Part shown: one piece after another, positions 4,656-46,057 of the stretch
Numbering within the stretch: the first letter of the stretch is position 1
How the letters are laid out: each line of letters begins with the position of its first letter
Sequence record: NC_047820.1
Strand: one strand, 5' to 3'
Length of the DNA stretch: 50,800 bases
From: Escherichia phage vB_EcoS_ESCO41
Program-made: the position numbers and the translations under genes
Notes under the pieces: model-generated
What the model was told of the DNA's origin: nothing
Seen by the model: only the letters and a program-made list of their open reading frames with translations
Databases searched by the model: none

Positions 4656-5273
4656 ATGTCAAAGATTATCATTCTCAACGGTCCGGCTGGTGTAGGTAAA
4701 GACACGATCGGCAACGCGCTCGCAGCGGATTACAATTGCATCCCGACCAGCTTCAAGCGTCCGATGTTTGAGATTGCCGCGTCAATCCTTGGTGTCAGGG
4801 CTTTTTCAATGTTCATCACCGCATACGACGACCGCGACCAGAAAGAGCATCCTCAGAGCTTTCTCGGTGGAAAGACCTGCCGCGAGTTCATGATCTGGAT
4901 TAGCGAAACAGTGGTCAAGCCGCTTTTTGGCAATCAGCAGTTCGGCAAATTGATGAGCGAACATATCCGTCTGTGTGATGAAGGATTCTGTTTTGTTTGC
5001 ACTGATGGCGGCTTCCCCGATGAAGTGATTCGACTCGTTGAAGATGGTCACGATGTTACCCTGGTCCGCTTGTTCATGGATGGCAAGACTTTCGCGGGAG
5101 ATAGCCGTGATTATATCCGCATCAAGGAATCGCATTTCCCTGATTACAAGAAATATAACGAACATGATGTGCATCTGGTGAATGGTGATATTGACGGCGG
5201 CGTCATAGCAGTTGTTCGCGCCTGCGGTATCCGTCCTGCAATCGACGAGTGGGCCGACGATATTCCTTGGTAA
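4656..5273 (+). CDS. P-loop nucleotide kinase, T4 gp1 (dNMP kinase)-like
   Basis: Walker A IIILNGPAGVGKDT resembles the T4 dNMP kinase N-terminus (recalled from memory). Confidence 0.55.
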   Translation: MSKIIILNGPAGVGKDTIGNALAADYNCIPTSFKRPMFEIAASILGVRAFSMFITAYDDRDQKEHPQSFLGGKTCREFMIWISETVVKPLFGNQQFGKLMSEHIRLCDEGFCFVCTDGGFPDEVIRLVEDGHDVTLVRLFMDGKTFAGDSRDYIRIKESHFPDYKKYNEHDVHLVNGDIDGGVIAVVRACGIRPAIDEWADDIPW

Positions 5274-5274
5274 A

Positions 5275-5317
5275 TAGCACGAATTGCTAAACCCGCTCCG
5301 GCGGGTTTTGTTATAGT
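5275..5317 (+). promoter_or_regulatory. palindrome-promoter cassette: TAGCACGAATTGCTA + 22 bp + TATAGT
   Basis: Palindrome 5275-5289 just after stop TAA; -10-like 5312-5317 preceded by TGT. Confidence 0.6.
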
Positions 5318-5346
5318 TAGTTCACACCAAACGACAGGAAAGCAAA

Positions 5347-5946: not shown

Positions 5947-5976
5947 TACCCCATCGAAACGAACGAGGAAGCAGAA

Positions 5977-6189
5977 ATGAAAATTGAAATTATCGACGTG
6001 AATTATGCTACTGATGACGACTCCCTCACCTTAGAGGAGTGCGGGTTTAAATTTGGGGATGTTGTCGAGGTGTTCGGTCATTACATTGATGGCGACCTTT
6101 CAATCAGGGCCATCCGTGAAACAGAGTTTGTCACCGTTGGCGATGGGATCAGCATTAGCGAACATGAATATAAGGTAATCGAAGAATGA
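5977..6189 (+). CDS. hypothetical acidic protein (70 aa)
   Basis: ORF after cassette/leader/RBS. Confidence 0.5.
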   Translation: MKIEIIDVNYATDDDSLTLEECGFKFGDVVEVFGHYIDGDLSIRAIRETEFVTVGDGISISEHEYKVIEE

Positions 6190-6512
6190 TTTACATTCAC
6201 ACTTATGGCATTGGCAAATTTGGCAAAGAGATTCGCCGGACCGTTCACGAAACGAAGGAATTAGCAGAAGCGGCACAGAAAGTTCTCGGCGGTGAGTTCA
6301 AGGCTTACCGCGAAGCGGATGACTCGGTTGAATGCTGGCAGGTTGAGCGCATGCGTAACGTTCTGGAAAGTGAGGTGTCAGATCTTATCGATAACATGAC
6401 GAGTCACGGCCCTGGCGGACCATGGGAAGAGCCTGGCTCACCGGAATGGGATTGTGCCAAGGTTGACACAATGAACAAGATCAGCGAAATCATTGATGGG
6501 GTGTACGAATAA
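6186..6512 (+). CDS. hypothetical protein (108 aa)
   Basis: ATGA overlap with upstream gene. Confidence 0.5.
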   Translation: MIYIHTYGIGKFGKEIRRTVHETKELAEAAQKVLGGEFKAYREADDSVECWQVERMRNVLESEVSDLIDNMTSHGPGGPWEEPGSPEWDCAKVDTMNKISEIIDGVYE

Positions 6513-6685
6513 TGCTGACAATAATGATGGCTAATCTTGACCTATCATCTGATTTTAGCATTATCGCCTTCATCTTACCGATACTGCTACTACTGCCTTT
6601 CGCCTGTTACGTGGTAATAAAGGACCTGGCAGAATGGAAACGAATTGACAAAAAAATTAAACAAGCAACCTACAGGAATAAATAA
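6512..6685 (+). CDS. small membrane protein (57 aa, below ORF-track cutoff)
   Basis: TAATG overlap; hydrophobic core FSIIAFILPILLLLPFACYVV. Confidence 0.35.
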   Translation: MLTIMMANLDLSSDFSIIAFILPILLLLPFACYVVIKDLAEWKRIDKKIKQATYRNK

Positions 6686-6925
6686 ATGTTTGGATTAACC
6701 GATCCGCAGATGAACGCAGTAAAGGCCAAGGCCAAGCAATTAAACGCAGCGTATGCCACCCTAAGCAAGAAAGATCGCAAAGATGATAAGCTGGTTGCCT
6801 CAATTATTACCAAGCACCATGATGCCGTAGCGACCATTATATCGCGATCGCGTTTTATATGGATTGCAGGGTACATAGAGGGGAGGTGCGGAAAGCGTGA
6901 AAATGGGGAAAGTATCTATGAGTAA
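6686..6925 (+). CDS. hypothetical protein (79 aa)
   Basis: ORF immediately after previous stop. Confidence 0.45.
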   Translation: MFGLTDPQMNAVKAKAKQLNAAYATLSKKDRKDDKLVASIITKHHDAVATIISRSRFIWIAGYIEGRCGKRENGESIYE

Positions 6926-7112
6926 GATCAAGAAGGGTGACGTGATCAAGTGTATCGGCGCGCGCGGTTATGAGTTCTTTAATGGCTGCGAGTACACAGT
7001 GGAAAAAGTTGATTCCCAGGGATACGTTTATGTCTACAGCGACGAGGGGAACAAGGTCGCGATCGACTACCCTGTTTGCCAGACGTATGGAACTTTTAAA
7101 AAAGTTGATTGA
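6897..7112 (+). CDS. hypothetical protein; likelier start ATG 6918
   Basis: ORF-track frame; the ATG at 6918 has a GGGGAAAG RBS-like sequence. Confidence 0.4.
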   Translation: MKMGKVSMSKIKKGDVIKCIGARGYEFFNGCEYTVEKVDSQGYVYVYSDEGNKVAIDYPVCQTYGTFKKVD

Positions 7113-7137
7113 CAACCATCTCACTGACTGGTATCTT
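7109..7137 (+). promoter_or_regulatory. candidate sigma70 promoter TTGACA-N17-TATCTT upstream of tRNA genes
   Basis: -35 7109-7114, -10 7132-7137; weak -10. Confidence 0.3.
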
Positions 7138-7288
7138 TAATCTCGTAAACAGAAGAGGCCACCAAGTGGCAACGAGCGGTTCGTAATCCGCAAATTGAAA
7201 TAGCGCATCGCCAAAAGCAAAGTGTAAGTCGCAATACAATCGAGGCATTGTGAAAGCCTGCCGGATTCCGTAACCGGCCTTCATTTAA

Positions 7289-7366
7289 GCTCCGCTAGCT
7301 CAATTGGAAAGAAGCAACGACCTTCTAAGTCGTAGGTTACTGGTTCGAACCCAGTGCGGAGCGCCA
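7289..7366 (+). tRNA. tRNA-Arg (anticodon UCU)
   Basis: Acceptor GCTCCGC/GCGGAGC, anticodon stem ACGAC/GTCGT with loop CTTCTAA, T-arm ACTGG-TTCGAAC-CCAGT, encoded CCA; D-arm irregular. Confidence 0.75.
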
Positions 7367-7370
7367 ATTA

Positions 7371-7469
7371 CTCGGCGTTGCTAATATTGGCCTTAGGGTG
7401 GAGCTTATACCTCCATAAAGCAATCGACAGATAATCGATGTAATGCAGGTTCGATTCCTGCCGCCGAGA
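7371..7469 (+). tRNA. atypical tRNA-like gene (about 99 nt): anticodon-type loop CTTATAC (UAU) plus an extra 29-nt region with a second hairpin
   Basis: Acceptor CTCGGCG/CGCCGAG, T-arm GCAGG-TTCGATT-CCTGC, hairpins TGGAG-CTTATAC-CTCCA and ATCGA-CAGATAA-TCGAT; not a canonical class I or II fold. Confidence 0.4.
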
Positions 7470-7487
7470 CTAATAACGAGGTTTGAT

Positions 7488-7673
7488 ATGTTTGAGGTCA
7501 AGCTAACTATTTTGCTAATGGGGCGCACATGCGCATCTTGTAAGCAAAACTTTGAAGCAAAGGTTGAGGCCAGTAGCGCCGAAGAGGCCGTTTCAAAGGC
7601 AAAGAAAATGAGCGGAGTCGATACAACGACTCATAAATTTTTAGTTAATTATGTAAGGGGTATTTCATGCTGA
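7488..7673 (+). CDS. hypothetical protein (62 aa)
   Basis: ATG 7488 with RBS AACGAGG; the longer ORF-track start 7443 would overlap the tRNA-like gene. Confidence 0.4.
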   Translation: MFEVKLTILLMGRTCASCKQNFEAKVEASSAEEAVSKAKKMSGVDTTTHKFLVNYVRGISC

Positions 7674-7888
7674 CGTTTATTTATGGTTTTATTTTCGCTT
7701 TCGTCCTGATCATTTCGTTATCTTGCTCATGTGTAGCCAAGCTAATTAAGCGAGGTCAGTTCGCTCAAGCTCGATACGATGAGAAGAAAAAGCAGTGGCG
7801 CGTATCCGGCAAGTTTATCTCTGTGTTCAACGAGATTAACGACATTCGATCGGGGCGGAAGCCTGGGGCCATCAAATACGTTGACTGA
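7667..7888 (+). CDS. small membrane protein (73 aa)
   Basis: N-terminal hydrophobic segment FIYGFIFAFVLIISL. Confidence 0.4.
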   Translation: MLTFIYGFIFAFVLIISLSCSCVAKLIKRGQFAQARYDEKKKQWRVSGKFISVFNEINDIRSGRKPGAIKYVD

Positions 7889-7896
7889 TTCATTTA

Positions 7897-7921
7897 AGCA
7901 TCCTTTGGGGTGCTTTTTTTA
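7897..7921 (+). terminator. rho-independent terminator
   Basis: 7-bp stem AGCATCC/GGGGTGCT with G-U pair, then T7 run. Confidence 0.6.
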
Positions 7922-7932
7922 TGCCTGCAATC

Positions 7933-7941
7933 TGGTATAAT
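7933..7941 (+). promoter_or_regulatory. extended -10 element TGGTATAAT upstream of terminase genes
   Basis: Direct reading; no clear -35. Confidence 0.3.
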
Positions 7942-7970
7942 TCATTCCTATTCAACAAGGGGAAACAACT

Positions 7971-8489
7971 ATGAAAGACGAAAATTTCACCAGCCACGCG
8001 AACGAGAAGGTTCGAATCGGTAACTTCAAAGAGCTATACAATAAAAAGTATGGCGACATTGCCAACCTGAACCATCGTCACCCAATGACGCCTGAGACTG
8101 TATTCAACCTTGCGGTTAAATATTTCTCATGGGCCGAGGACCAGGCAATTAAGGCAATCGAAACGGCGAGCTTCCATGGTGTAGTTACTGAGAACCTAGT
8201 GCATAAGCCTCGCATTTTCACTTTAAACGGATTCTGCCTGTACTGCGGAGTTACAGCAAGCTCAATTCAGAGCTGGCGCGCATCACCTGGATTCGCGGAG
8301 GTAATGGAGTTCGTTGACTCTGTAATCCATGAGCAAAAATATCAGCTTGCTGCAGCCAATATCATCAATGCTGGGTTTGTAGGCAAGGAGATTGGAATCG
8401 ACAAGCCCGCCGAGGTCAACGTAAGTAATGTAGTGAATGATACTCAGACGATTGAGGATGCTGTGAAAAGCGTTCTTGATAAGATTTGA
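7971..8489 (+). CDS. putative terminase small subunit
   Basis: 172-aa ORF immediately upstream of the large terminase; assignment by position only. Confidence 0.45.
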   Translation: MKDENFTSHANEKVRIGNFKELYNKKYGDIANLNHRHPMTPETVFNLAVKYFSWAEDQAIKAIETASFHGVVTENLVHKPRIFTLNGFCLYCGVTASSIQSWRASPGFAEVMEFVDSVIHEQKYQLAAANIINAGFVGKEIGIDKPAEVNVSNVVNDTQTIEDAVKSVLDKI

Positions 8490-8516
8490 TAAACCTTTAG
8501 CTAGTTCACGTGGAGT

Positions 8517-10136
8517 ATGTGCACAATGGCAAGTAAAGACATTTTAATATGGGAAAATCTAACCGAGAAAGAGAAGTCGGTAGTGAAGGTGATGAGCGAA
8601 AGGTCTTTTAGTGATTTTATGCGCATATGGTTCGCTTTGATACAGGCTCAGAAGTTTAGGTCTAATTGGCACTTCAACTACCTTTGCTGGAAGGTTGAGC
8701 AGATAATCAACGGTGAGATACAAAACATCATATTCAACATTACCCCAGGCTCTGGCAAGACTGAGATCTTCTCCATTCACATGCCAGTGTATTGCATGTT
8801 CAGGAGCGAGAAGATAAGGAATCTTAACCTCTCATTCTCTGATAGTCTCGTTAAGGATAACGGGATCAGGACGCGTGAGATTATCGGGTCTGATGAGTTC
8901 CAGGAGCTTTGGCCCTGCAAACTAGCAAAGGCTTCAGGTGGTGACATTACCGCTCTAAACTCAAAGGAAAAGGCATGGTTAACTCTAACTTCACGTGCGA
9001 TCGGTGGTCAGGTAACTGGTAAGCGTGGCGGTTATATGGATGATGGCTTCACCGGAATGCTGACGCTTGATGACCCTGAGAAGCCGAAAGACCTATACTC
9101 AGCAGTAAAGAGAAAGGCTGGTCACACGCTGTTAAAGAACACCGTTCGATCGCGAAGAATGAATGACAAGACACCATGCGTTGTTGTTCAGCAGCGACTA
9201 CACGTAAACGACGCGACTTGGTTCCTGATGAATGGCGGTATGGGTGGGATGCAGTTTGAGCAGGTAATCATTCCGGCCCTGGTCACTGAGGAATACAGAG
9301 ACGCACTTCCTGACTGGTTGAAAGAAGAGTTTGACCGCGACGTTTTATCTTCTGAACCTGTCGAGATTGATGGTGTTAAGCATTATTCATTCTGGCCTGC
9401 AAAAGAAAGCGCAGAGAGCTTGCTTGCATTGCGGGAGGCCGACCTTTACACCTTTGAGTCTCAGTATCAGCAAAAGCCGATCGCGCTTGGTGGCAACGCG
9501 TTCAAGTCGGAATGGTTCCAGTATTACGGCGACGGCGAAAAAGCCAACATGCCAAAACCGGATCGCTTCGAATACCTCTTTACCACTGCGGACACCGCGC
9601 AGAAGGCTGAGGAAATTCACGACTACAGCGTATTTGTTCTGTGGGGTAAGTATAAGGATCGCGTGTATTTCATCGACGGCATTCGCGGTAAGTGGGAAGC
9701 GCCGGACCTTGAAACGATGGCTCTTAACTTTTACGGCAACTGCTTTAAGTGGGCGAAGGAGAACAAGACGTCATTACGCAAGGTTTACATTGAAGACAAG
9801 GCGAGCGGTACGGGCCTGATCCAGTCAATTAACAAGAAGCTCCCGATTGACATCACGCCAGTGCAGCGAGATACCGACAAGGTTACGCGTGCAATGGACG
9901 CAGCACCAATCATGAAAGCAGGGCGAATCGTTTTTCCTGAATCTCACCCAATGCTTACTGAAATGGAAGCGGAACTGGTAGGCTTCACCTTTGATGATAG
10001 CCATCCTCACGATGATATCGTGGATAACGTGGTTGATGCTGGTAACTTCGAGATGAACTTGCTTGATGATCCGGTGGCACGAATGAAAAAACTCGCAGGA
10101 CTCAGGAAAAGCACTAAAAGTCAAAACACGCCTTAG
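8517..10136 (+). CDS. terminase large subunit (likelier start ATG 8526)
   Basis: 539 aa, P-loop-like NITPGSGKTE, directly upstream of portal; GGAG 8512-8515 fits the 8526 start. Confidence 0.75.
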   Translation: MCTMASKDILIWENLTEKEKSVVKVMSERSFSDFMRIWFALIQAQKFRSNWHFNYLCWKVEQIINGEIQNIIFNITPGSGKTEIFSIHMPVYCMFRSEKIRNLNLSFSDSLVKDNGIRTREIIGSDEFQELWPCKLAKASGGDITALNSKEKAWLTLTSRAIGGQVTGKRGGYMDDGFTGMLTLDDPEKPKDLYSAVKRKAGHTLLKNTVRSRRMNDKTPCVVVQQRLHVNDATWFLMNGGMGGMQFEQVIIPALVTEEYRDALPDWLKEEFDRDVLSSEPVEIDGVKHYSFWPAKESAESLLALREADLYTFESQYQQKPIALGGNAFKSEWFQYYGDGEKANMPKPDRFEYLFTTADTAQKAEEIHDYSVFVLWGKYKDRVYFIDGIRGKWEAPDLETMALNFYGNCFKWAKENKTSLRKVYIEDKASGTGLIQSINKKLPIDITPVQRDTDKVTRAMDAAPIMKAGRIVFPESHPMLTEMEAELVGFTFDDSHPHDDIVDNVVDAGNFEMNLLDDPVARMKKLAGLRKSTKSQNTP

Positions 10137-10186: not shown

Positions 10187-10735
10187 GTGAGATTCAGCGA
10201 TATTTTTACATACAAAAGCGGAGAGGTTTTCTGGAATGGAAGGCCAGAAAGTGATTTTAGTAAAATGAGTGCATATCACGCGTTTAATAGGATGGTTGGC
10301 AATACTGCTGGATACCTAGATAAATCAAACGGATACTGGTATGTGTGGATTACAATTGGCGGTATTGAAAAGAAAATACCACGATCACATATTGTGTGGT
10401 GTATTCACAATAATGCAGCCATCGTTCCAAAAGGGTTTGTTATTGATCATATAAACCACGTAAGAGATGATGATAGGATAGAAAACCTTGAACTTAAAAG
10501 CTATAGAGGAAACAACAGAAACCTTTCAATATCAAAAAGGAATAAAAGCGGTTGCGTAGGTGTTACATGGTATTCTCGCGATGAAATGTGGATGGCTTGC
10601 ATAATGGGTGATGACGGAAAGAACAAAAATCTTGGCAGGTATAATGACTGGTTTGATGCGGTTTGCGCAAGGAAGAGCGCGGAGCATGAGATTGGGTATC
10701 ACACAAACCACGGCAAGGATAGCGAGAATTGCTAA
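10187..10735 (+). CDS. HNH homing endonuclease (GTG start)
   Basis: IDHINHVRDDDRIENLEL matches the HNH/AP2-type motif; paralogous to 12823 and 40179 genes. Confidence 0.75.
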   Translation: MRFSDIFTYKSGEVFWNGRPESDFSKMSAYHAFNRMVGNTAGYLDKSNGYWYVWITIGGIEKKIPRSHIVWCIHNNAAIVPKGFVIDHINHVRDDDRIENLELKSYRGNNRNLSISKRNKSGCVGVTWYSRDEMWMACIMGDDGKNKNLGRYNDWFDAVCARKSAEHEIGYHTNHGKDSENC

Positions 10736-12822: not shown

Positions 12823-13305
12823 ATGAATTTCAATGATTATTTTTATCATGTAGGAAAAGATCTCATCTGGAAAAATCCGACATCAGCAAGGGTTAAGGCT
12901 GGCGATATTGCTGGATGGAAGGATGAGGATGGATATATTTACGTTAGGATTATGGGTAGGCTAACTCCAGCCCATAGGGTAATATGGGAGATGCACCATG
13001 GCAAAATACCTGAAGGTATGGAGATTGATCATATAAACCACATCACGGATGATAACAGGATCGAAAACTTAAGGCTCGTAACCAGGCAAGAGAACTGCAA
13101 AAACGTCTCGATGAGTAAGTCAAACAAAAGCGGATTTGTCGGGGTTAGTTGGTGTAAGAGAACGAGCAAATGGTTTGCTTCAATAAGGGTGGACAAAAAG
13201 GAGCGGTTCCTTGGTAGATACGATATAAAAGATGACGCTGTGTACGCAAGAAAGGATGCAGAGACGAAATATAATTTTCACAAAAATCACGGGAGTAAAA
13301 AATGA
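12823..13305 (+). CDS. HNH homing endonuclease
   Basis: IDHINHITDDNRIENLRL motif; inserted between head genes. Confidence 0.75.
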   Translation: MNFNDYFYHVGKDLIWKNPTSARVKAGDIAGWKDEDGYIYVRIMGRLTPAHRVIWEMHHGKIPEGMEIDHINHITDDNRIENLRLVTRQENCKNVSMSKSNKSGFVGVSWCKRTSKWFASIRVDKKERFLGRYDIKDDAVYARKDAETKYNFHKNHGSKK

Positions 13306-14483: not shown

Positions 14484-14996
14484 ATGGCACTAATCAAAGC
14501 ATCTTATACGGTTAACCGTTCAAAAGCATATGCAGGCCTGCTGGCTGACACCTCTCTCTACAACGTTGATGGAGCTTGTGCGGCGGCTAAAGAAATTAAG
14601 GTTGGCGTGGTAGTCGCCCTCGATCCTACTGGAAAGGTTGTTGATGGTCACAAAGTCGTAACTGACACCATCTCTGCAGAAACACCGAACCTGGTTGGCG
14701 TCGCAATCATGTCTCACGCGTACTCACCGGAAGGTGTATATGACGAAGGTTCTGCAACAAACGTGCTTACTCATGGTCGAGCATGGGTACTCTGTGCTAA
14801 AGACCTGCCTGAAGCGAACAAAGAGTTCAATAAGCAGGTGTTCTTGACCACTTCCGGCACTGTGGCGGCAACTGGTATTGGCACCGCGTACACCACTACT
14901 GGCGAATGGTTGAAGACTGATAATGAGAACTTCGACATTATCAAAATCCAGGTTACTCAAGCTCAATTCCAGCTTCCGGCAAGTCCGGCAGCTTAA
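14484..14996 (+). CDS. putative head structural/decoration protein
   Basis: 170-aa ORF with strong RBS, followed by terminator; positional. Confidence 0.35.
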   Translation: MALIKASYTVNRSKAYAGLLADTSLYNVDGACAAAKEIKVGVVVALDPTGKVVDGHKVVTDTISAETPNLVGVAIMSHAYSPEGVYDEGSATNVLTHGRAWVLCAKDLPEANKEFNKQVFLTTSGTVAATGIGTAYTTTGEWLKTDNENFDIIKIQVTQAQFQLPASPAA

Positions 14997-15013
14997 TAGC
15001 TGAACCATAATAT

Positions 15014-15036
15014 GGAGCCGAAAGGCTCCTTTTTTA
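15014..15036 (+). terminator. rho-independent terminator
   Basis: GGAGCC-gaaa-GGCTCC followed by T7; same hairpin as at 45841. Confidence 0.7.
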
Positions 15037-15074
15037 TTGCCAGGAATAGCTCAAGCGCTTAACACAAAAAGCTG

Positions 15075-15102
15075 TTGACCGTTTAACAAAAAATGCTATT
15101 AT
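15075..15102 (+). promoter_or_regulatory. sigma70-type promoter TTGACC-N16-TATTAT for the major capsid gene
   Basis: -35 15075-15080, -10 15097-15102. Confidence 0.55.
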
Positions 15103-15149: not shown

Positions 15150-16103
15150 ATGACTATGAAATTAGATTCTTTCGAGAAGAATATGATCACTAACGGCCTT
15201 CGCCAGCTCGGCATCAGCGGAAGCAAAGTCGATCAGATGGGTATCTGGACCGTTAACCAGATGACGCAACTTCTGAAGCGTCAATATGAAGAGGCGTACC
15301 CTGAAACTTCAGCGCTTGCTCTGTTCCCTGTCACCACAGAAATCAGCCCGACCGCTAACCTGTTCGAATACATGAAGTTGGACGGCGTGACCATGGCGAA
15401 GATTATCGCTGACTATAGCGACGACCTGCCGACCGTTGACGCTACTCACACCATGGAATCAGGTCGAGTTCACCGACTGGGTAACGCGTGGTTTATCTCC
15501 ATTGATGAGATCAAAACTGGAGCAGCTCTTGGTTCAAGCCTTTCTGACCGTAAAGCAACTCTGGCTCGCGAAGGTCACGAAACACTGGTTAATCAGCTGG
15601 TTTTCAAAGGCTCGAAGCCTCACAAGATCGTTTCGGTATTTGACCATCCGAACATTCCGCGAGTAAACTCTGTGGCTGGAGCGTGGGCTGACGCTGAAAA
15701 GGCAAGTGATGAACTGACCGACCTGATCGAGCAGATGGAATCAGTCACCAATGGTAAGCACAAAGTAACCGACATCGTAATTCCGCCGTCTCAGCGTAAA
15801 CTGCTGGCTAAGCGTATGCCGGAAACGACCATGAGTTATCTTGACTGGTTCAAGTCTCAGAACGGTGGCATTACCATCTCTTCCATTTCTGAACTGGAAG
15901 ACATCGACGGAGCAGGCACCAAAGCCGTACTGGCTTACGAAAAAGATCCGATGAACATGAGTATCGAGATCCCTGAGTCGTTCAACATGCTGCCAATGCA
16001 GCCGAAAGACTTGCACTTCAAAGTGCCGTGCACGTCAAAGACCACTGGCCTGATCGTGTATCGCCCACTTACCCTCATCCTCCTGGTTGGTGTGGGCAAG
16101 TAA
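15150..16103 (+). CDS. putative major capsid protein
   Basis: 317-aa ORF with own promoter, strong RBS AAAGGAACA and flanking terminators; positional. Confidence 0.6.
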   Translation: MTMKLDSFEKNMITNGLRQLGISGSKVDQMGIWTVNQMTQLLKRQYEEAYPETSALALFPVTTEISPTANLFEYMKLDGVTMAKIIADYSDDLPTVDATHTMESGRVHRLGNAWFISIDEIKTGAALGSSLSDRKATLAREGHETLVNQLVFKGSKPHKIVSVFDHPNIPRVNSVAGAWADAEKASDELTDLIEQMESVTNGKHKVTDIVIPPSQRKLLAKRMPETTMSYLDWFKSQNGGITISSISELEDIDGAGTKAVLAYEKDPMNMSIEIPESFNMLPMQPKDLHFKVPCTSKTTGLIVYRPLTLILLVGVGK

Positions 16104-31035: not shown

Positions 31036-31165
31036 TTCCGCGAAAAATGATATACGCGCTGTTACGCTGATTTACGCAATGGTTACATTAAAATATCTAT
31101 ATATATCAACCTTTTACTCTTATTATTATTATTATATATATTACTGTGTATATCATGTAACTACT
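31036..31165. repeat. AT-rich element paralogous to 252-344: ATACGC-type repeats, (TTA)n tract, TACTGTGTA motif
   Basis: Aligned by eye to the left-end element; lies between divergent transcription units. Confidence 0.55.
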
Positions 31166-37465: not shown

Positions 37466-37508
37466 ATCATACCTCATCAATGAGAAATGTCTTTAGCTTT
37501 TCGTGCCG
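37466..37508 (-). promoter_or_regulatory. degenerate palindrome-promoter cassette embedded in the 3' end of the HTH gene: CGGCACGAAAAGCTA + 22 bp + TATGAT
   Basis: Plus 37494-37508 palindrome-like, -10 at plus 37466-37471, then leader and gene 37235..37423. Confidence 0.45.
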
Positions 37509-37959
37509 CATCGTTAGCGGCCTTAATCTTGCGCCATGAACGACACTCTGGCTTAGTGGCTAGTTCAGCCTCGGTGACGACGCGCAGCATGTGACGCTTT
37601 TTGCAACGCAGCGTTAGCGGCTTACCGTTCCCGTCGAATTGCAGATCCGGTCGGCAGAACGTAGCGCGGAATCCCTCTCCAGTTCGTTTGTATCGGTTAT
37701 GAGCCAGCTGAGCGCCACGGGCCGACATCATGCCGCGCTTAAACCATTCCTCAACGGCCTGGCGACTAACTTTCAGTTGCTTTGCGATATTTGCCTTCGT
37801 TCCGTAGAAGTCGAGAACCATTTCCAGTCGCGCCCGAAGCCCCGCCTTTACTTCATCTTTTAAAACGTAGTAACCTGAAGGTCGTTTTCGTTGCTTTTTG
37901 TCTTCAGTGCGGACTGTTCCGTTGTTACCGTTAATAGTTCGCTTGTCAACTGCTTTCAT
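37477..37959 (-). CDS. basic DNA-binding protein with helix-turn-helix (candidate transcription regulator)
   Basis: HTH-like TKANIAKQLKVSRQAVEEWFKRG; Lys/Arg-rich; divergent from the helicase gene with a palindrome in between. Confidence 0.5.
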   Translation of the reverse strand: MKAVDKRTINGNNGTVRTEDKKQRKRPSGYYVLKDEVKAGLRARLEMVLDFYGTKANIAKQLKVSRQAVEEWFKRGMMSARGAQLAHNRYKRTGEGFRATFCRPDLQFDGNGKPLTLRCKKRHMLRVVTEAELATKPECRSWRKIKAANDAARKAKDISH

Positions 37960-37972
37960 TTTATCACCTCAA

Positions 37973-38015
37973 TAGCATTTTTTGTTAAAAGTCATTACGA
38001 TTTGATGGTAGTATT
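37973..38015 (+). promoter_or_regulatory. palindrome-promoter cassette: TAGCATTTTTTGTTA + 21-22 bp + TAGTAT
   Basis: Palindrome 37973-37987 sits 14 bp upstream of the divergent HTH gene start and upstream of the helicase gene. Confidence 0.5.
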
Positions 38016-38060: not shown

Positions 38061-39242
38061 ATGTTGCCTATCGAGAAGTTGGTTGCGAACTTCGATAAAG
38101 AAAGAATCAAACAAATTCAGAGAGATTATCAGTTTGGCGAGATAACCCCTTACGAATTCCAGTGCGTTACATTTGATGCAATTGGAAAGGCTATTGGGAA
38201 GTATGAGGCCCCATTTATAGCAGACCTTTCCGTTTCTGCGGGTAAGACAATTATTCTTGCCATGATTGGTAAGCGCATGGAGCAATTAGGGTTGCCTTAT
38301 ATGGTTCTTTCTCGCCAGTCAGAGATAATCAGCCAGAACTCAGAAGAGCTCCGTAATTTCGGTATCCGTAACAGCGTATATTGCGCTGGCCTTAACGTTA
38401 AATCAGTTTACTACCCAACCATAGTGGCTAGTGAGGGTACGGCAGCCAATGGCTTATTTAAGGGGCTTGGTGACTATGTTCCTGCGGTTATCGCTATAGA
38501 TGAATGTCACATGCTTGATACCATAGATATTGTGGAAGCCGAAGAGAATGAAGAAACATTTGAGCAAATGAGCACAAAGAAAGGCGAGATGGTTTTTAAG
38601 GATGGCGTTAATACTGGATTGCTTGGTACTGGTCGTGCGCAGTACACGCTAATAATCACTGAGATGAAGCGTCGCTGCCGTGAAAAATACGGGCGGGAGC
38701 TTCGTATATTCGGCCTTACTGGTAGCCCTTATCGAAACAATGACCATATCGTCGTTAGCAATCCAAACATCCGTGGGTTCTGGCGAAAAACTGTGATTCA
38801 GGTTCCAACAAATTACCTTGTTGATTTGGGATTCGTGGTTCCTACTGTTTATGGCGAGGTTGGCGATTTAGGTTATGACCTTAGCGAGTTTGAGCCTGAC
38901 GGAAGCGATGGTGTGAAAGATTTCAGCAAGAAAGAAATGGATGCGATGGCTGCAAAGATTCACGACAATCAGTCAATGACTCAAAAAATAATGGGGTTTG
39001 TTGTAAAAATACTAGAGACTCGTAACGCCGCGCTGGTTACATGCGCTGGCAAGTTGCACTGCAGTGAAGCGGCTGCCGCACTGCCTGATGGATACCCTTA
39101 CGCAATCATTACTGATTCTACTGGCGAGAAAAAACGACGTGAGATTCTATCTGATTGCCAGACAGGTAAGTACAAAATAATATTCCAAATTGGGTGTCTA
39201 ACTACGGGCGTTTCGGTCCCGCCCTTACGCAATCATTACTGA
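38061..39242 (+). CDS. SF2 helicase, N-terminal part (reading frame broken by 127-bp tandem duplication)
   Basis: Walker A SVSAGKTI, DEAD-box-like AIDECHM; ORF stops 21 nt into the second repeat copy. Confidence 0.65.
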   Translation: MLPIEKLVANFDKERIKQIQRDYQFGEITPYEFQCVTFDAIGKAIGKYEAPFIADLSVSAGKTIILAMIGKRMEQLGLPYMVLSRQSEIISQNSEELRNFGIRNSVYCAGLNVKSVYYPTIVASEGTAANGLFKGLGDYVPAVIAIDECHMLDTIDIVEAEENEETFEQMSTKKGEMVFKDGVNTGLLGTGRAQYTLIITEMKRRCREKYGRELRIFGLTGSPYRNNDHIVVSNPNIRGFWRKTVIQVPTNYLVDLGFVVPTVYGEVGDLGYDLSEFEPDGSDGVKDFSKKEMDAMAAKIHDNQSMTQKIMGFVVKILETRNAALVTCAGKLHCSEAAAALPDGYPYAIITDSTGEKKRREILSDCQTGKYKIIFQIGCLTTGVSVPPLRNHY

Positions 39243-39348
39243 TTCTACTGGCGAGAAAAAACGACGTGAGATTCTATCTGATTGCCAGACAGGTAAGTAC
39301 AAAATAATATTCCAAATTGGGTGTCTAACTACGGGCGTTTCGGTCCCG
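39095..39348 (+). repeat. perfect tandem duplication, 2 x 127 bp (39095-39221 and 39222-39348), inside the helicase gene
   Basis: Base-by-base comparison; 127 is not a multiple of 3; deleting one copy restores a single ORF 38061..40182. Confidence 0.85.
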
Positions 39349-39369: not shown

Positions 39370-40182
39370 TTGAGAAAGATTGGTAGCTTAACTCTCATGA
39401 TTCAGCTTCTTGGGCGAGGCATGCGAATTCTAAAGAAAAAGCATATAGAAATGGGGATGAAAAAAGATGATCACCTTGTTCTAGACTTCGCCGGCGCACT
39501 TGACGATATGGCCGAACTTTACTTTGACCCAATCATTGAAGAAATTCAGGCTGAGAAGTTCAAGTCCTCAAGGAAAGGTGGTGATGAGGTCCGGCAGTGC
39601 CCGCAGTGTGGATATGAGAACTCACCATTTGCTCGACGCTGTAGCAACAAGATTGATGGAAAGCGCTGTGAGCACTTTTTCAGCTTTACGGTTTGTGAAG
39701 ATATTACTGACCCACAAACAAAGTCCGTCATCAAGAAAGGTTGCGGTACTCGCAACGACATAGCAGCAAAGGTTTGTCGTGAATGCGGAGAAATGCTTAA
39801 AGACCCTAATGCTAATCTAACCGGTAAGATGTATCGTCGTGGTGATTACCTCCGAGTTTATGATTTTCAAGTTGGTTTAAGTAAGAACCAGACTGGAATA
39901 GTTGTTAAATACAACATCATGGCGCATAACGGAGAGCGGTTTAATGCTTGGGAGTTCTTTAATCCAGAATCAGACCATCGAGTTTGCAGCGTGCTTTGGA
40001 AAAATTTCTGCCTATCCCATATTGAGAATCGCACAGAAGCAGCACGAATTGCTAAACTTCGCAGCGCAAAAATGATTATGATGAACGTAGATAAATTCCG
40101 TGCTCCTGTGCAGGTAACTCACAGAAAGAATGGCAAAGGAAAGGACATAATAGCTTTTAAGAATTTTGGAGAATTATTATGA
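39370..40182 (+). CDS. SF2 helicase, C-terminal part (motif VI plus Cys-rich zinc-finger-like region); possibly a pseudogene fragment
   Basis: QLLGRGMR helicase motif VI; CPQCG..RRCSNK..CEHF and CGTRND..CRECG; frame continuous with upstream ORF if one repeat copy is removed. Confidence 0.55.
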   Translation: MRKIGSLTLMIQLLGRGMRILKKKHIEMGMKKDDHLVLDFAGALDDMAELYFDPIIEEIQAEKFKSSRKGGDEVRQCPQCGYENSPFARRCSNKIDGKRCEHFFSFTVCEDITDPQTKSVIKKGCGTRNDIAAKVCRECGEMLKDPNANLTGKMYRRGDYLRVYDFQVGLSKNQTGIVVKYNIMAHNGERFNAWEFFNPESDHRVCSVLWKNFCLSHIENRTEAARIAKLRSAKMIMMNVDKFRAPVQVTHRKNGKGKDIIAFKNFGELL

Positions 40183-40655
40183 ATTGGAATGAGTGTTTTT
40201 ACTATGACAATGGCGTTTTGAGGTGGAAAATCCGCAGGGCTAATTGCGTTAAAATTGGTGACGAGGTCGGATTTAAACACGAGAGAGAGGGTTATAGGTT
40301 TTTCTGTAGGGACAGAAAACAATACTCTACACACAGAGTAATATGGGAAATGTTTTACGGACCAATACCGAAGGGCATGGAGATAGATCACATTAATCAC
40401 GTTAGGGATGACAATAGAATAGAAAACCTTAGACTTGTAAGTAAGCAATCAAATATGGAGAACAAATCGAAATACAAGAACAACAAAAGCGGATTTACTG
40501 GAGTGAGCTTCGAAAGTAAGTCTGGTCGGTGGTCTGTGAGTGTTGGGTCAAAAAGATACGGAAGATTCGATAACATCGAGCACGCAAAAATATGCGCAAT
40601 GATAGTTAGGGCTGAACTTGGATACCACGATAACCATGGGGATTATTTCCAGTGA
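40179..40655 (+). CDS. HNH homing endonuclease
   Basis: IDHINHVRDDNRIENLRL motif; paralog of 10187 and 12823 genes. Confidence 0.75.
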   Translation: MNWNECFYYDNGVLRWKIRRANCVKIGDEVGFKHEREGYRFFCRDRKQYSTHRVIWEMFYGPIPKGMEIDHINHVRDDNRIENLRLVSKQSNMENKSKYKNNKSGFTGVSFESKSGRWSVSVGSKRYGRFDNIEHAKICAMIVRAELGYHDNHGDYFQ

Positions 40656-41071
40656 ATATTACAGATAAGGTTGATTACATTGAGTTTTACCCGGGCCCTG
40701 TTAAATCATGCCCAAAGGAGGATGACGAACAAATATTTTGCTCTGATTGGGTTAAGTATAACTATCCAGAGATGGTATTTTTCCACTGCGTGAATGAGGG
40801 TAAGAAAACCATTGGACAAGCAAGAAAGGACCAGGCTAAAGGATTGCTTAAGGGGGTTTCGGACTGCTTATTCCTGATGCCTGAATCGCTGCGTGGCAAA
40901 TACCCTTTCGGTGCCATAGAGCTAAAGAGAGCAGGAAAAACCCAAGCAAGCCCAGTCAGTGACGAACAGAAGTCATTCCTTAAAAGCGTAAGGGAATCAG
41001 GAGGTTTTGCTGGGGTTGCCTACGGGCGTGAAGGTTTTCTTGCGGCATTTAAAGAGATGATTTCAAAATAG
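40652..41071 (+). CDS. VRR-NUC-like nuclease domain protein (putative)
   Basis: PD-(D/E)xK-like pattern around ..FLMPE..GAIELKRAGK..; low-certainty motif reading. Confidence 0.4.
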   Translation: MNITDKVDYIEFYPGPVKSCPKEDDEQIFCSDWVKYNYPEMVFFHCVNEGKKTIGQARKDQAKGLLKGVSDCLFLMPESLRGKYPFGAIELKRAGKTQASPVSDEQKSFLKSVRESGGFAGVAYGREGFLAAFKEMISK

Positions 41072-41111
41072 CACGAATTGATAAAGACTAATCGGTGAGG
41101 TGGTGTATTAT
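41069..41111 (+). promoter_or_regulatory. palindrome-promoter cassette: TAGCACGAATTGATA + 22 bp + TATTAT
   Basis: Palindrome 41069-41083 overlaps stop; -10-like 41106-41111 in loop of GAGGTG..CACCTC hairpin; leader CATCGAAACGAAG. Confidence 0.55.
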
Positions 41112-41150
41112 CACCTCATCGAAACGAAGTAACCAACCAAGGAAATCAAA

Positions 41151-42153: not shown

Positions 42154-42385
42154 GATGGAAAAGTTGCAATTTGATTTAACTGAGCAGGGGCAATTCCTTT
42201 TATTTCGCGGCCTTGTTTGCACGGCTCTTACAATGGCTGGGTTCAAGGGTGATGCTTGGGTATTCTCAAATCTTGACATGTCATTTGAAGAGGTCCAAGG
42301 CACTCCATTTGAATCATGGTCAAGATCAATAGCAAAAGATCTCGCAGACTATAAGCGCGATTGCCCTGAAGATTTTAACCAATAG
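42146..42385 (+). CDS. hypothetical protein (79 aa)
   Basis: Overlaps methylase stop; own stop inside palindrome. Confidence 0.45.
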   Translation: MFKMEKLQFDLTEQGQFLLFRGLVCTALTMAGFKGDAWVFSNLDMSFEEVQGTPFESWSRSIAKDLADYKRDCPEDFNQ

Positions 42386-42425
42386 CACGAATTGCTAAAC
42401 ATACCCGCCGCCGTGCGGGTATACT
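42383..42425 (+). promoter_or_regulatory. palindrome-promoter cassette: TAGCACGAATTGCTA + 22 bp + TATACT
   Basis: Palindrome 42383-42397; -10-like 42420-42425; leader CACACCAAAGAAACGAGG. Confidence 0.55.
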
Positions 42426-42455
42426 TCTTTCACACCAAAGAAACGAGGAATCACC

Positions 42456-44627: not shown

Positions 44628-44654
44628 CGCAATAAAAACATAACGTTAAGCACG

Positions 44655-44680
44655 GGGAGCCTTTAGGCTCCCTTTTTTTT
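44655..44680 (+). terminator. rho-independent terminator before the lysis cassette
   Basis: GGGAGCC-ttta-GGCTCCC followed by T8. Confidence 0.7.
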
Positions 44681-44759
44681 CGCTTCTTTTTCATACCATG
44701 CTAATGTATTATGTTTTTTACTAACTGAGATATTGACAAATACATAAAAGGTGGATCAC

Positions 44760-44975
44760 ATGAGAGAGGTAATTAACGCCGCTACAGCGTCAACTGGCGG
44801 GGCTGCGGTAACTGGAGCGGCAACTGGTCAAGTGACCATAGCAATAATCAGCCTTATCGCTCTAATCATTTTTGGTGCGTGGGGTGCTTACTGGAAGTTT
44901 AAGGATAGCCAGGCGATTAGGCGCGCTCTTGAATCAGGAGACTTAAAAACAGCAATCAAGATAAGGAGCAAGTAA
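44760..44975 (+). CDS. putative holin (pinholin-like); start ATG 44760
   Basis: 71 aa with one hydrophobic segment VTIAIISLIALIIFGAWGAYW and charged C-terminus; RBS GGTGG; immediately upstream of endolysin. Confidence 0.5.
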   Translation: MREVINAATASTGGAAVTGAATGQVTIAIISLIALIIFGAWGAYWKFKDSQAIRRALESGDLKTAIKIRSK

Positions 44976-45461
44976 ATGAAGCAGAAGTTGTTAATTAGTG
45001 CGGCTACAGCTGCGGCAATATACATAGCAGCGCCGCTTATTGAGCTTGTCGAGGGTGTGGAGAACAGGCCTTACATTGACATTGCTGGAGTGAAAACAGT
45101 TTGTTCAGGGATCACTGGCCCAGACGTAGTTTGGGGTAAAGCTTACAGTAACAGGGAGTGCCGGAACCTGCTGGAGAAATACATTCAGATTCATGGCAAG
45201 TATGTTCAGAACGCCGTCACCTACCCAATCGCACCAGAGACAAGGGCGGCTTTAATCAGCTTTAGCTACAACGTTGGCGGTTCAGCAATGAGGAAATCCA
45301 CTGCTATTAAGTTGATTAATCAGGGTAAGATTGAGCAGGGTTGCAAGGCTCTGGGGATGTGGAACAAAGCTACCGTTAATGGAAAAAAGGTTGTCGTTAA
45401 GGGTTTGGTGAATCGCAGGAATGAGGAGATTAAATTATGTTTAAGCGGAATTGGAAAGTAG
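44976..45461 (+). CDS. endolysin, phage lysozyme family with N-terminal SAR-like hydrophobic segment
   Basis: LVEGVENRPYIDIAGVKTVCSGITG and ISFSYNVGGSA resemble phage 21 R / P1 Lyz (Glu-Asp-Thr catalytic triad region), recalled from memory. Confidence 0.75.
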   Translation: MKQKLLISAATAAAIYIAAPLIELVEGVENRPYIDIAGVKTVCSGITGPDVVWGKAYSNRECRNLLEKYIQIHGKYVQNAVTYPIAPETRAALISFSYNVGGSAMRKSTAIKLINQGKIEQGCKALGMWNKATVNGKKVVVKGLVNRRNEEIKLCLSGIGK

Positions 45462-45838
45462 TCGCATCGGCAGTATTGCTGTCCATTTTTTTAACGGGTT
45501 GTTCGGCAACATCTGCTCTGACTGGTTTGATTGGCAGCAAGCCAGAAATTAGCGCACAGGCTGGGGCCGAAAACGTGAAGCAAACGGTAGGCGTTACCGG
45601 AAAGGTGGATAAGTCAAACGACAACGACACCACTATCAAAGATTCAAAGGTAGGAAAGGTTGATACGTCAAACGGGAAGTCTGTCAGCACATCAAGCATC
45701 AAGGCTGACACCATCATCGCTGATAAGATTGAGATCAGGAATGACTCAAAAGGCAATCTGATTGCTGGACTGGTATTCCTGTTCATCGGTATTCTGATGG
45801 TAATTTTCTATCTATGGCTGGAACGACGCAAAAAATAA
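45437..45838 (+). CDS. unimolecular spanin (T1 gp11-type)
   Basis: N-terminal lipoprotein signal with lipobox LTGC and C-terminal transmembrane segment in a single 133-aa protein; overlaps endolysin 3' end. Confidence 0.65.
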   Translation: MFKRNWKVVASAVLLSIFLTGCSATSALTGLIGSKPEISAQAGAENVKQTVGVTGKVDKSNDNDTTIKDSKVGKVDTSNGKSVSTSSIKADTIIADKIEIRNDSKGNLIAGLVFLFIGILMVIFYLWLERRKK

Positions 45839-45840
45839 AA

Positions 45841-45864
45841 GGAGCCGAAAGGCTCCCTTTTTTT
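45841..45864. terminator. bidirectional terminator
   Basis: GGAGCC-gaaa-GGCTCC with T-runs on both sides; identical hairpin to 15014. Confidence 0.7.
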
Positions 45865-46057
45865 ATCCAAATCTTTGCACCAGCAGCAACAATTCACCTT
45901 CATTATTGCACAGTGTATGCTCATCACGACGTCCGGCACGCATGGATGAGTTAAGAATTGAAAGAAGGGCTTGATTAATCCCATCCTCACTGATGCCATT
46001 CTCAGAACTGCATCTGATTATCGCGTCGATTACAACCTGGCTTTCCGAATAACTCAT
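45863..46057 (-). CDS. hypothetical protein (64 aa); uncertain
   Basis: ORF overlapping the 3' end of the upstream gene by 56 nt; weak RBS. Confidence 0.3.
   Translation of the reverse strand: MSYSESQVVIDAIIRCSSENGISEDGINQALLSILNSSMRAGRRDEHTLCNNEGELLLLVQRFG

Follow-up and report, generated by a model that had tools for sequence, protein, structure and literature searches.

We propose that three short hairpins in the genome of a T1-like siphovirus, two of them identical, are probably Rho-independent terminators that use one favoured, generic hairpin sequence held by purifying selection, with no segment duplicated. The proposal draws on the anatomy, predicted folding, position and conservation of the three sites and on the over-representation of the hairpin; termination in vivo, and its efficiency at each site, are predictions made from these sequence features. 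The window, meaning the whole 50.8-kb stretch of DNA that was analysed, is a complete T1-like siphovirus genome (Drexlerviridae, Nouzillyvirus-like) and constitutes the entire IMG/VR contig IMGVR_UViG_2974610512_000001.

The 16-nt sequence GGAGCCGAAAGGCTCC occurs in exact form at sites 1 and 3 of the whole window (15014–15029 and 45841–45856, both on the + strand), each copy being followed by a T-run (TTTTTTATT and CTTTTTTTAT, respectively). A sequence search thereby recovers the repeat reported in the initial annotation, and the GAAA loop fits the GNRA type that was assigned to it there. A third family member, absent from that annotation, is found at site 2, where the same stem carries a TTTA loop (GGGGAGCC-TTTA-GGCTCCCT, then T8). 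All three hairpins fall within the dimensions of intrinsic terminators, which have a G+C-rich stem of ∼5–14 bp and a loop of 3–8 nt: sites 1 and 3 have a 6-bp stem (5 of the pairs G-C) and a 4-nt loop, and site 2 has an 8-bp stem. The U-tracts (TTTTTTATT, CTTTTTTTAT and TTTTTTT(T)) begin within 0–2 nt of the stem, and each hairpin is intergenic, in the sense orientation and just 3′ of a stop codon, at a distance of 17 nt at site 1 (stop at 14996), 26 nt at site 2 (44627) and 2 nt at site 3 (45838). The predicted folding energies are −12.4 kcal/mol for site 1, −16.0 kcal/mol for site 2, and −12.6 and −15.3 kcal/mol for the + and − strands of site 3, with z-scores of about −3 relative to shuffled sequences at every site (−3.5 at site 1). 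The terminator function previously suggested for the two exact copies thus remains a prediction, now with a full intrinsic-terminator anatomy at both. An Rfam search of the window returned no family at the three hairpin sites, its sole match being a tRNA gene at 7289–7363 (RF00005, 57.7 bits); a tRNA-Arg is annotated in the early region of the relative ETEP102, upstream of the terminase genes. Canonical terminator candidates number about 15 in the window, and their stems vary. Scan-listed hairpins at 5289 and 42401 were left out of the count of plain terminators because they sit inside modules composed of a direct repeat, a hairpin and TATAGT.

Table 1. Positions of the three hairpin sites and of the neighbouring genes and signals in the window.
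Feature	Position	Strand	Sequence or basis
170-aa head structural/decoration gene	14484..14996	+	phrog_1989, 6e-52; phrog_563 'virion structural protein'
Site 1 hairpin	15014..15029	+	Stem GGAGCC/GGCTCC, 6 bp, GAAA tetraloop; terminator-like in scan
Site 1 U-tract	15030..15038	+	TTTTTTATT; from sequence, conserved in relatives
Sigma-70-like major-capsid promoter	15075..15102	+	TTGACC-16-TGcTATTAT; consensus scan 10/12, extended −10
Major head protein gene, downstream of site 1	15150..16103	+	phrog_264, 2e-97
Site 2 hairpin	44654..44673	+	GGGGAGCC-TTTA-GGCTCCCT; core stem as at sites 1 and 3, 8 pairs; predicted fold −16.0
Site 2 U-tract	44674..44680	+	From sequence
Lysis cassette, bracketed by sites 2 and 3	44751..45838	+	PHROGs
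Holin gene	44751..44975	+	PHROGs, 5e-37
Endolysin gene	44976..45461	+	PHROGs, 7e-46
u-Spanin gene	45437..45838	+	PHROGs Rz-like spanin, 6e-48
Site 3 A-tract	45830..45840	+	AAAAAATAAAA; invariant in 12 relatives
Site 3 hairpin, same as site 1	45841..45856	both	+ GGAGCC-GAAA-GGCTCC; − AAAGGGAGCC-UUUC-GGCUCCUUUU, 10 pairs
Site 3 U-tract	45857..45866	+	CTTTTTTTAT; overlaps stop codon of convergent gene (45863–45865)
Convergent 64-aa gene ending at site 3	45863..46057	−	phrog_9539, 8e-33; annotated CDS in relatives

The gene that ends before site 1 (TAA stop codon at 14994–14996) encodes a 170-aa protein whose homologue is annotated as a capsid decoration protein in ETEP102 and KLB19. The placement of the hairpin 'after the head gene' in the initial annotation is imprecise. 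The gene upstream is this head structural gene, and the major head gene lies downstream with its own promoter; site 1 is located 45 nt upstream of that major-capsid promoter, a strong sigma-70-like signal that is conserved across distant T1-like phages. The stem of site 1 is short (6 bp) and no A-tract precedes it, so this predicted terminator may be leaky. A module comprising the decoration gene together with its terminator (14484–15074 in the window) is exchanged in the Nouzillyvirus relatives PH1062 and P817. Their decoration gene belongs to a different module with a TTCG hairpin, and homology to the window restarts only at the capsid promoter, which indicates that the terminator travels with the upstream gene. 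The right junction of this swap is the conserved capsid promoter/direct-repeat motif and not the hairpin.

Site 2 lies between a 57-aa open reading frame and the holin gene. At the other end of the lysis cassette is the spanin gene, homologues of which were found in 1171 phage records, and site 3 fills the 24-nt gap between the convergent stop codons of this gene (+) and of the 64-aa gene (−). The A-tract on the 5′ side of site 3 consists of the last two lysine codons and the TAA stop codon (45836–45838) of the spanin gene, and it doubles as the source of the U-tract for a minus-strand transcript. The site therefore combines an A-tract 5′, a U-tract 3′, convergent genes and a predicted fold on both strands, and in its anatomy it agrees with the bidirectional terminator that had been proposed after the spanin gene. 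An intergenic motif, AAAACATA(A/G)CGTTA, is present just 5′ of the site 2 hairpin (44635–44648) and is conserved even in distant Rtp-like phages.

The mechanism of intrinsic termination is established general knowledge, and its application to the three sites would be as follows. The E. coli RNA polymerase of the host would read all three hairpins as intrinsic terminators, the nascent RNA folding into a G+C-rich stem of 6–8 bp with a stable tetraloop (C-GAAA-G) as the polymerase pauses on the U-tract, and the hairpin would weaken the rU:dA hybrid, leading to release of the transcript. Site 1 would close the protease/decoration transcript 45 nt short of the major-capsid promoter, which it would thereby insulate, site 2 would shield the lysis cassette from upstream transcription, and site 3 would terminate both of the converging transcripts. 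The near-identity of the three would then reflect a generic compact design, comprising a 6-bp G+C-rich stem, a GNRA loop closed by C-G and a U-tract, that has been fixed by purifying selection.

Close relatives for comparison were drawn from the phages in GenBank, where the nearest are Nouzillyvirus phages (Drexlerviridae) with 84–91% nucleotide identity; a search of IMG/VR with the capsid protein returned the window itself at 100% and all others at ≤70%. All seven relatives with the decoration gene (GaoY1-9D, TH27, TH30, CJ19, 50EP, XT34 and p111) carry the exact 16-mer at site 1. Klebsiella phage KLB19 (Vilniusvirus) and IMG/VR contig 2706796100 have it as well, with a decoration protein that is only ∼66% identical. 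At site 3 it is found in 12 of the 12 relatives examined. No hairpin column varies, whereas variation affects 33 of the 161 flanking columns of site 1 and 37 of the 101 of site 3 (combined Fisher p∼0.001, a count in which one nominally variable hairpin column is an artefact of gap placement), and no hairpin copy varies in the eight genomes that hold both sites. The loop is as perfectly kept as the stem, down to the ∼66% amino-acid identity of KLB19, and this exceeds the structural need. The oldest hairpin is that of site 2, which distant Rtp-like and Braunvirinae phages share. Among its 11 distinct orthologous sequences, 98.9% of cells are paired and all of the stem substitutions produce G·U pairs in the + strand RNA; hence, site 2 fits a hairpin that acts in the sense-strand RNA. 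Other lineages have GGGGC-TTCG-GCCCC at the site 1 position or lack a hairpin there. Distant relatives have AGCCTCC-TAAT-GGAGGCT at site 3, with one compensatory variant in which AGCCTCC/GGAGGCT is changed to AGCCCCC/GGGGGCT. Structure is thus kept by selection in the relatives, through invariance at sites 1 and 3, G·U-only change at site 2 and compensatory change in the alternative allele of site 3.

The hairpin is also used far beyond these relatives. At least 120 stretches in IMG/VR contain the exact 16-mer, including contigs of about 168 kb, a length usual among T4-like phages, and among 135 listed occurrences 90 have a T-run downstream and a further 9 have an A-run upstream, placing 99 (73%) in a terminator context. 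A non-pairing 16-mer of identical composition was found in only 10 stretches and never in a terminator context, and a pairing hairpin with a permuted stem was found in 75 stretches, with 42% in a terminator context. Unrelated phage contigs carry the exact hairpin three to seven times with differing flanks (for example, IMGVR_UViG_3300027649_000291, 5966–8848). One unrelated contig has seven copies within 3 kb, and some contigs add GCAA or GAGA loop variants of the stem. In E. coli K-12 MG1655 the exact 16-mer lies inside the 42 nt that separate ivy from fadE, two convergent genes, and a published primer beside ivy contains the hairpin sequence (PMC3458809). In other T1-like contigs it follows an SSB-like gene (five contigs) or a tail-tip gene (two contigs), positions at which the window carries different hairpins. 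The finding is therefore real but ordinary, since many unrelated phages and the host, E. coli, have the same hairpin. The suggestion, made at the outset, of selection for one optimal terminator fits these data: the hairpin is invariant where its flanks vary, and the 16-mer recurs in a terminator context in unrelated phages and in E. coli.

The other origin suggested initially was duplication, and as the copying of a segment this fails, because the copies share only the hairpin and T-run when ±60 nt around the three sites are aligned (including the reverse complement of site 3); every site is, moreover, conserved in its own context across the relatives. Copying of the hairpin alone is a narrower proposal, according to which short-patch gene conversion or microhomology-mediated recombination copied a terminator of ∼16–30 nt from one intergenic site to another, non-homologous one. 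The copies would then be identical by descent, and the sites would still function as terminators. We consider this a possible but unlikely account. The phage does encode an exonuclease, a recombinase and an SSB-like protein, and site 2 read on the + strand differs from site 3 read on the − strand only at loop position 4. The 16-mer occupies five different terminator positions among T1-like phages, according to lineage, and its reuse within genomes far exceeds its sharing between them: among the matches listed, ∼11 of ∼112 contigs have 2–7 copies, the corresponding figure for the permuted-stem control being 1 of 75. Among other terminator hairpins, identity was seen in 6 of 68 pairs from the same contig and in 12 of 3502 pairs from different contigs, with unrelated flanks, and loop variants of the target stem (GCAA, GTGA, GAGA or TAAC) occurred in contigs with the target (9/85, compared with 0/28 in control loci), both samples being small and made up of loci picked for the seeded hairpin. 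On the other side, flanking sequence was not co-transferred, no genome has both copies changed together, as there is no variation in which concerted change could show, and independent origin would seem easy, given that E. coli and unrelated phage families share the hairpin. A T-run followed by AT is no mark of copying either, since most terminators in the window have such a tail. Purifying selection on a generic terminator remains our preferred reading; independent convergence alone may not be the whole story, however, and some copying of the hairpin alone may contribute, because the 16-mer recurs within single contigs beyond the level of the permuted-stem control. It is quite unlikely that the hairpin is more than this, namely a 'terminator allele' that spreads by short-patch recombination among non-homologous intergenic sites within and between Drexlerviridae and in wider phages. 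Single genomes would thereby acquire families of terminators that are identical or differ in the loop, and these might provide microhomology for the exchange of modules such as the lysis cassette with its inverted, near-identical pair.

Chance coincidence of two unrelated terminators is extremely improbable, even though by our own arithmetic ∼0.3 exact 16-nt direct repeats are expected in a random 50.8-kb sequence. It is for this reason that the weight of the observation lies in the perfect hairpins and T-runs at gene ends and not in the length of the match. The repertoire of G+C-rich stems is also restricted, the window having CCCGC/GCGGG three times and AGCCCC/GGGGCT twice. Nevertheless, none of 100 dinucleotide-preserving shuffles of the window contained a match to GGAGCCGAAAGGCTCC, even with up to two mismatches allowed, and coincidence is further opposed by the stem common to all three members, by the lack of change in both copies across the relatives and by the reuse seen again in other genomes. 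Also very improbable is a main purpose other than termination, whether as an mRNA 3′ stabiliser or processing site, as the target of an RNA-binding protein (for instance a boxB-like antitermination hairpin) or as a mobile or REP-like repeat. It would accord with the conservation of the loop along with the stem, GNRA-like loops being protein and RNA docking motifs, and with the inverted pair of 45 nt (44636–44680 and 45832–45876, 73% complementary) that flanks the lysis cassette. This complementarity, however, arises from the hairpin together with the homopolymer tracts, and the arrangement is absent from more distant relatives. The Rfam result at the three sites also speaks against such a purpose, and 3′ stabilisation is a normal by-product of terminator hairpins and no rival function. 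A lambda-type nut site (boxA with boxB) was rejected because no boxA is nearby and U-tracts are present: the closest boxA-like match is >1.7 kb away, the four boxA-like matches compared with 2.1 expected are at the level of chance, and a U-tract, which nut/boxB sites do not have, directly follows every copy. A REP- or MITE-like repeat was likewise rejected because terminal repeats are absent and the copy number is low, with three copies in unrelated flanks and no flanking repeats or target-site duplications.

Several other repeats were observed in the window. An 18-nt direct repeat, ATAGCACnnnTTGnTAAA, is present in 21 copies compared with 0.4 expected, mostly oriented along local transcription, at sites that include 1885, 2182, 3024, 3912, 5274, 5903, 30195(−), 36148, 41068, 42382, 48661(−) and 50254(−). 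Its core is the inverted repeat TAGCA-N5-TGCTA, and PMC11447400 already describes the element in phage TLS, with 21 copies. A variant, ATAGCATTTTTTGTTAAA, occurs at 15082–15099 (−) and 37972–37989 (+), in both cases against the local gene direction. The former copy is inside the spacer of the major-capsid promoter and is conserved across very distant T1-like phages, and the latter directly precedes the ribosome-binding site of the gene at 37477–37959 (−). The direct repeat, a small G+C hairpin and TATAGT/TATACT together form a 58-nt module that is present four times (1878–1935, 5267–5324, 41061–41118 and 42375–42432). An 88-nt, very A+T-rich repeat with 82% identity occupies two distant intergenic places (247–334 and 31063–31150). 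A perfect 127-nt tandem duplication (39095–39348) splits the helicase gene into open reading frames at 38061–39242 and 39370–40182; removal of one copy restores a single 664-aa helicase open reading frame, and the split reflects either an error of assembly or a genuine frameshift. Three paralogous HNH homing-endonuclease genes (open reading frames 10187–10735, 12823–13305 and 40179–40655) share stretches with 70–80% identity (10427–10566, 13009–13148 and 40368–40507). Relatives have HNH insertions elsewhere; in XT34 and P817, for instance, one separates the endolysin gene from the spanin gene.

For annotation of the phage, the three sites fix where the protease/decoration unit ends, where the lysis unit starts and where the convergent junction beyond it lies. 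The compact 16-nt hairpin with its U-tract would also make a sensible small terminator for engineering phages or coli, since nature reuses it in E. coli and its phages. The finding carries little weight for biology at large. Of broader interest is that identical terminator hairpins were much commoner within single phage genomes than between genomes and, if copying is real, terminators would join the small regulatory cassettes that move within phage genomes.

Comparison with known systems places the three sites among ordinary intrinsic terminators. Those of E. coli, such as the one between ivy and fadE in K-12, are alike in their G+C-rich stem, stable tetraloop, U-tract and position at gene ends, and in that case the 16-mer is identical. 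Nothing essential differs, although the phage stems are among the short ones (6 bp) and site 3 packs its parts unusually tightly, both stop codons being overlapped by its A- and U-tracts. The terminator after gene VIII of M13/fd has 6-nt arms, GGCTCC and GGAGCC, a 4-nt loop and a T-run; relative to the hairpin of the window, the order of the arms is opposite and the loop is TTTT. Ju and colleagues reportedly found in 2019 that bidirectional intrinsic terminators between convergent genes are pervasive in bacteria, and site 3 shares with these the hairpin, the A- and T-tracts, the convergent genes and predicted folds on both strands. The PeSLs of T4-like phages are composite promoter/stem-loop cassettes that mediate modular shuffling and are proposed to provide recombination homology (PMC2839356, PMC4122927). 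They resemble the sites described here in being short regulatory stem-loops repeated at intergenic positions. The hairpins of the window differ in having no common promoter part and only three copies, and a PeSL-like cassette was rejected on the former ground and because, in the one module swap examined, the PH1062/P817 junction is at the capsid promoter/direct-repeat motif, with the hairpin going with the upstream gene. The 58-nt module resembles the T4-like PeSLs, and the 21-copy ATAGCAC...TAAA repeat is a better analogue of them than are the hairpins.

A further close system is the set of 'transcriptons' of T1 and TLS, which belong to the same phage family. According to Roberts et al. (2004), as cited in PMC11447400, their late modules are flanked by rho-independent terminators with sigma-70 promoters, and 21 terminators are predicted in TLS in the same source. 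In their accessible text, these papers do not report the reuse of one hairpin sequence at several sites, and TLS has no hairpin at the site 1 position. ETEP102, in turn, has an annotated terminator after its decoration gene, as at site 1. The layout of a terminator followed by a promoter is the same as that from site 1 to the capsid promoter, and the ∼15 varied terminator candidates of the window match the transcripton picture of T1 and the 21 predicted terminators of TLS (PMC11447400).
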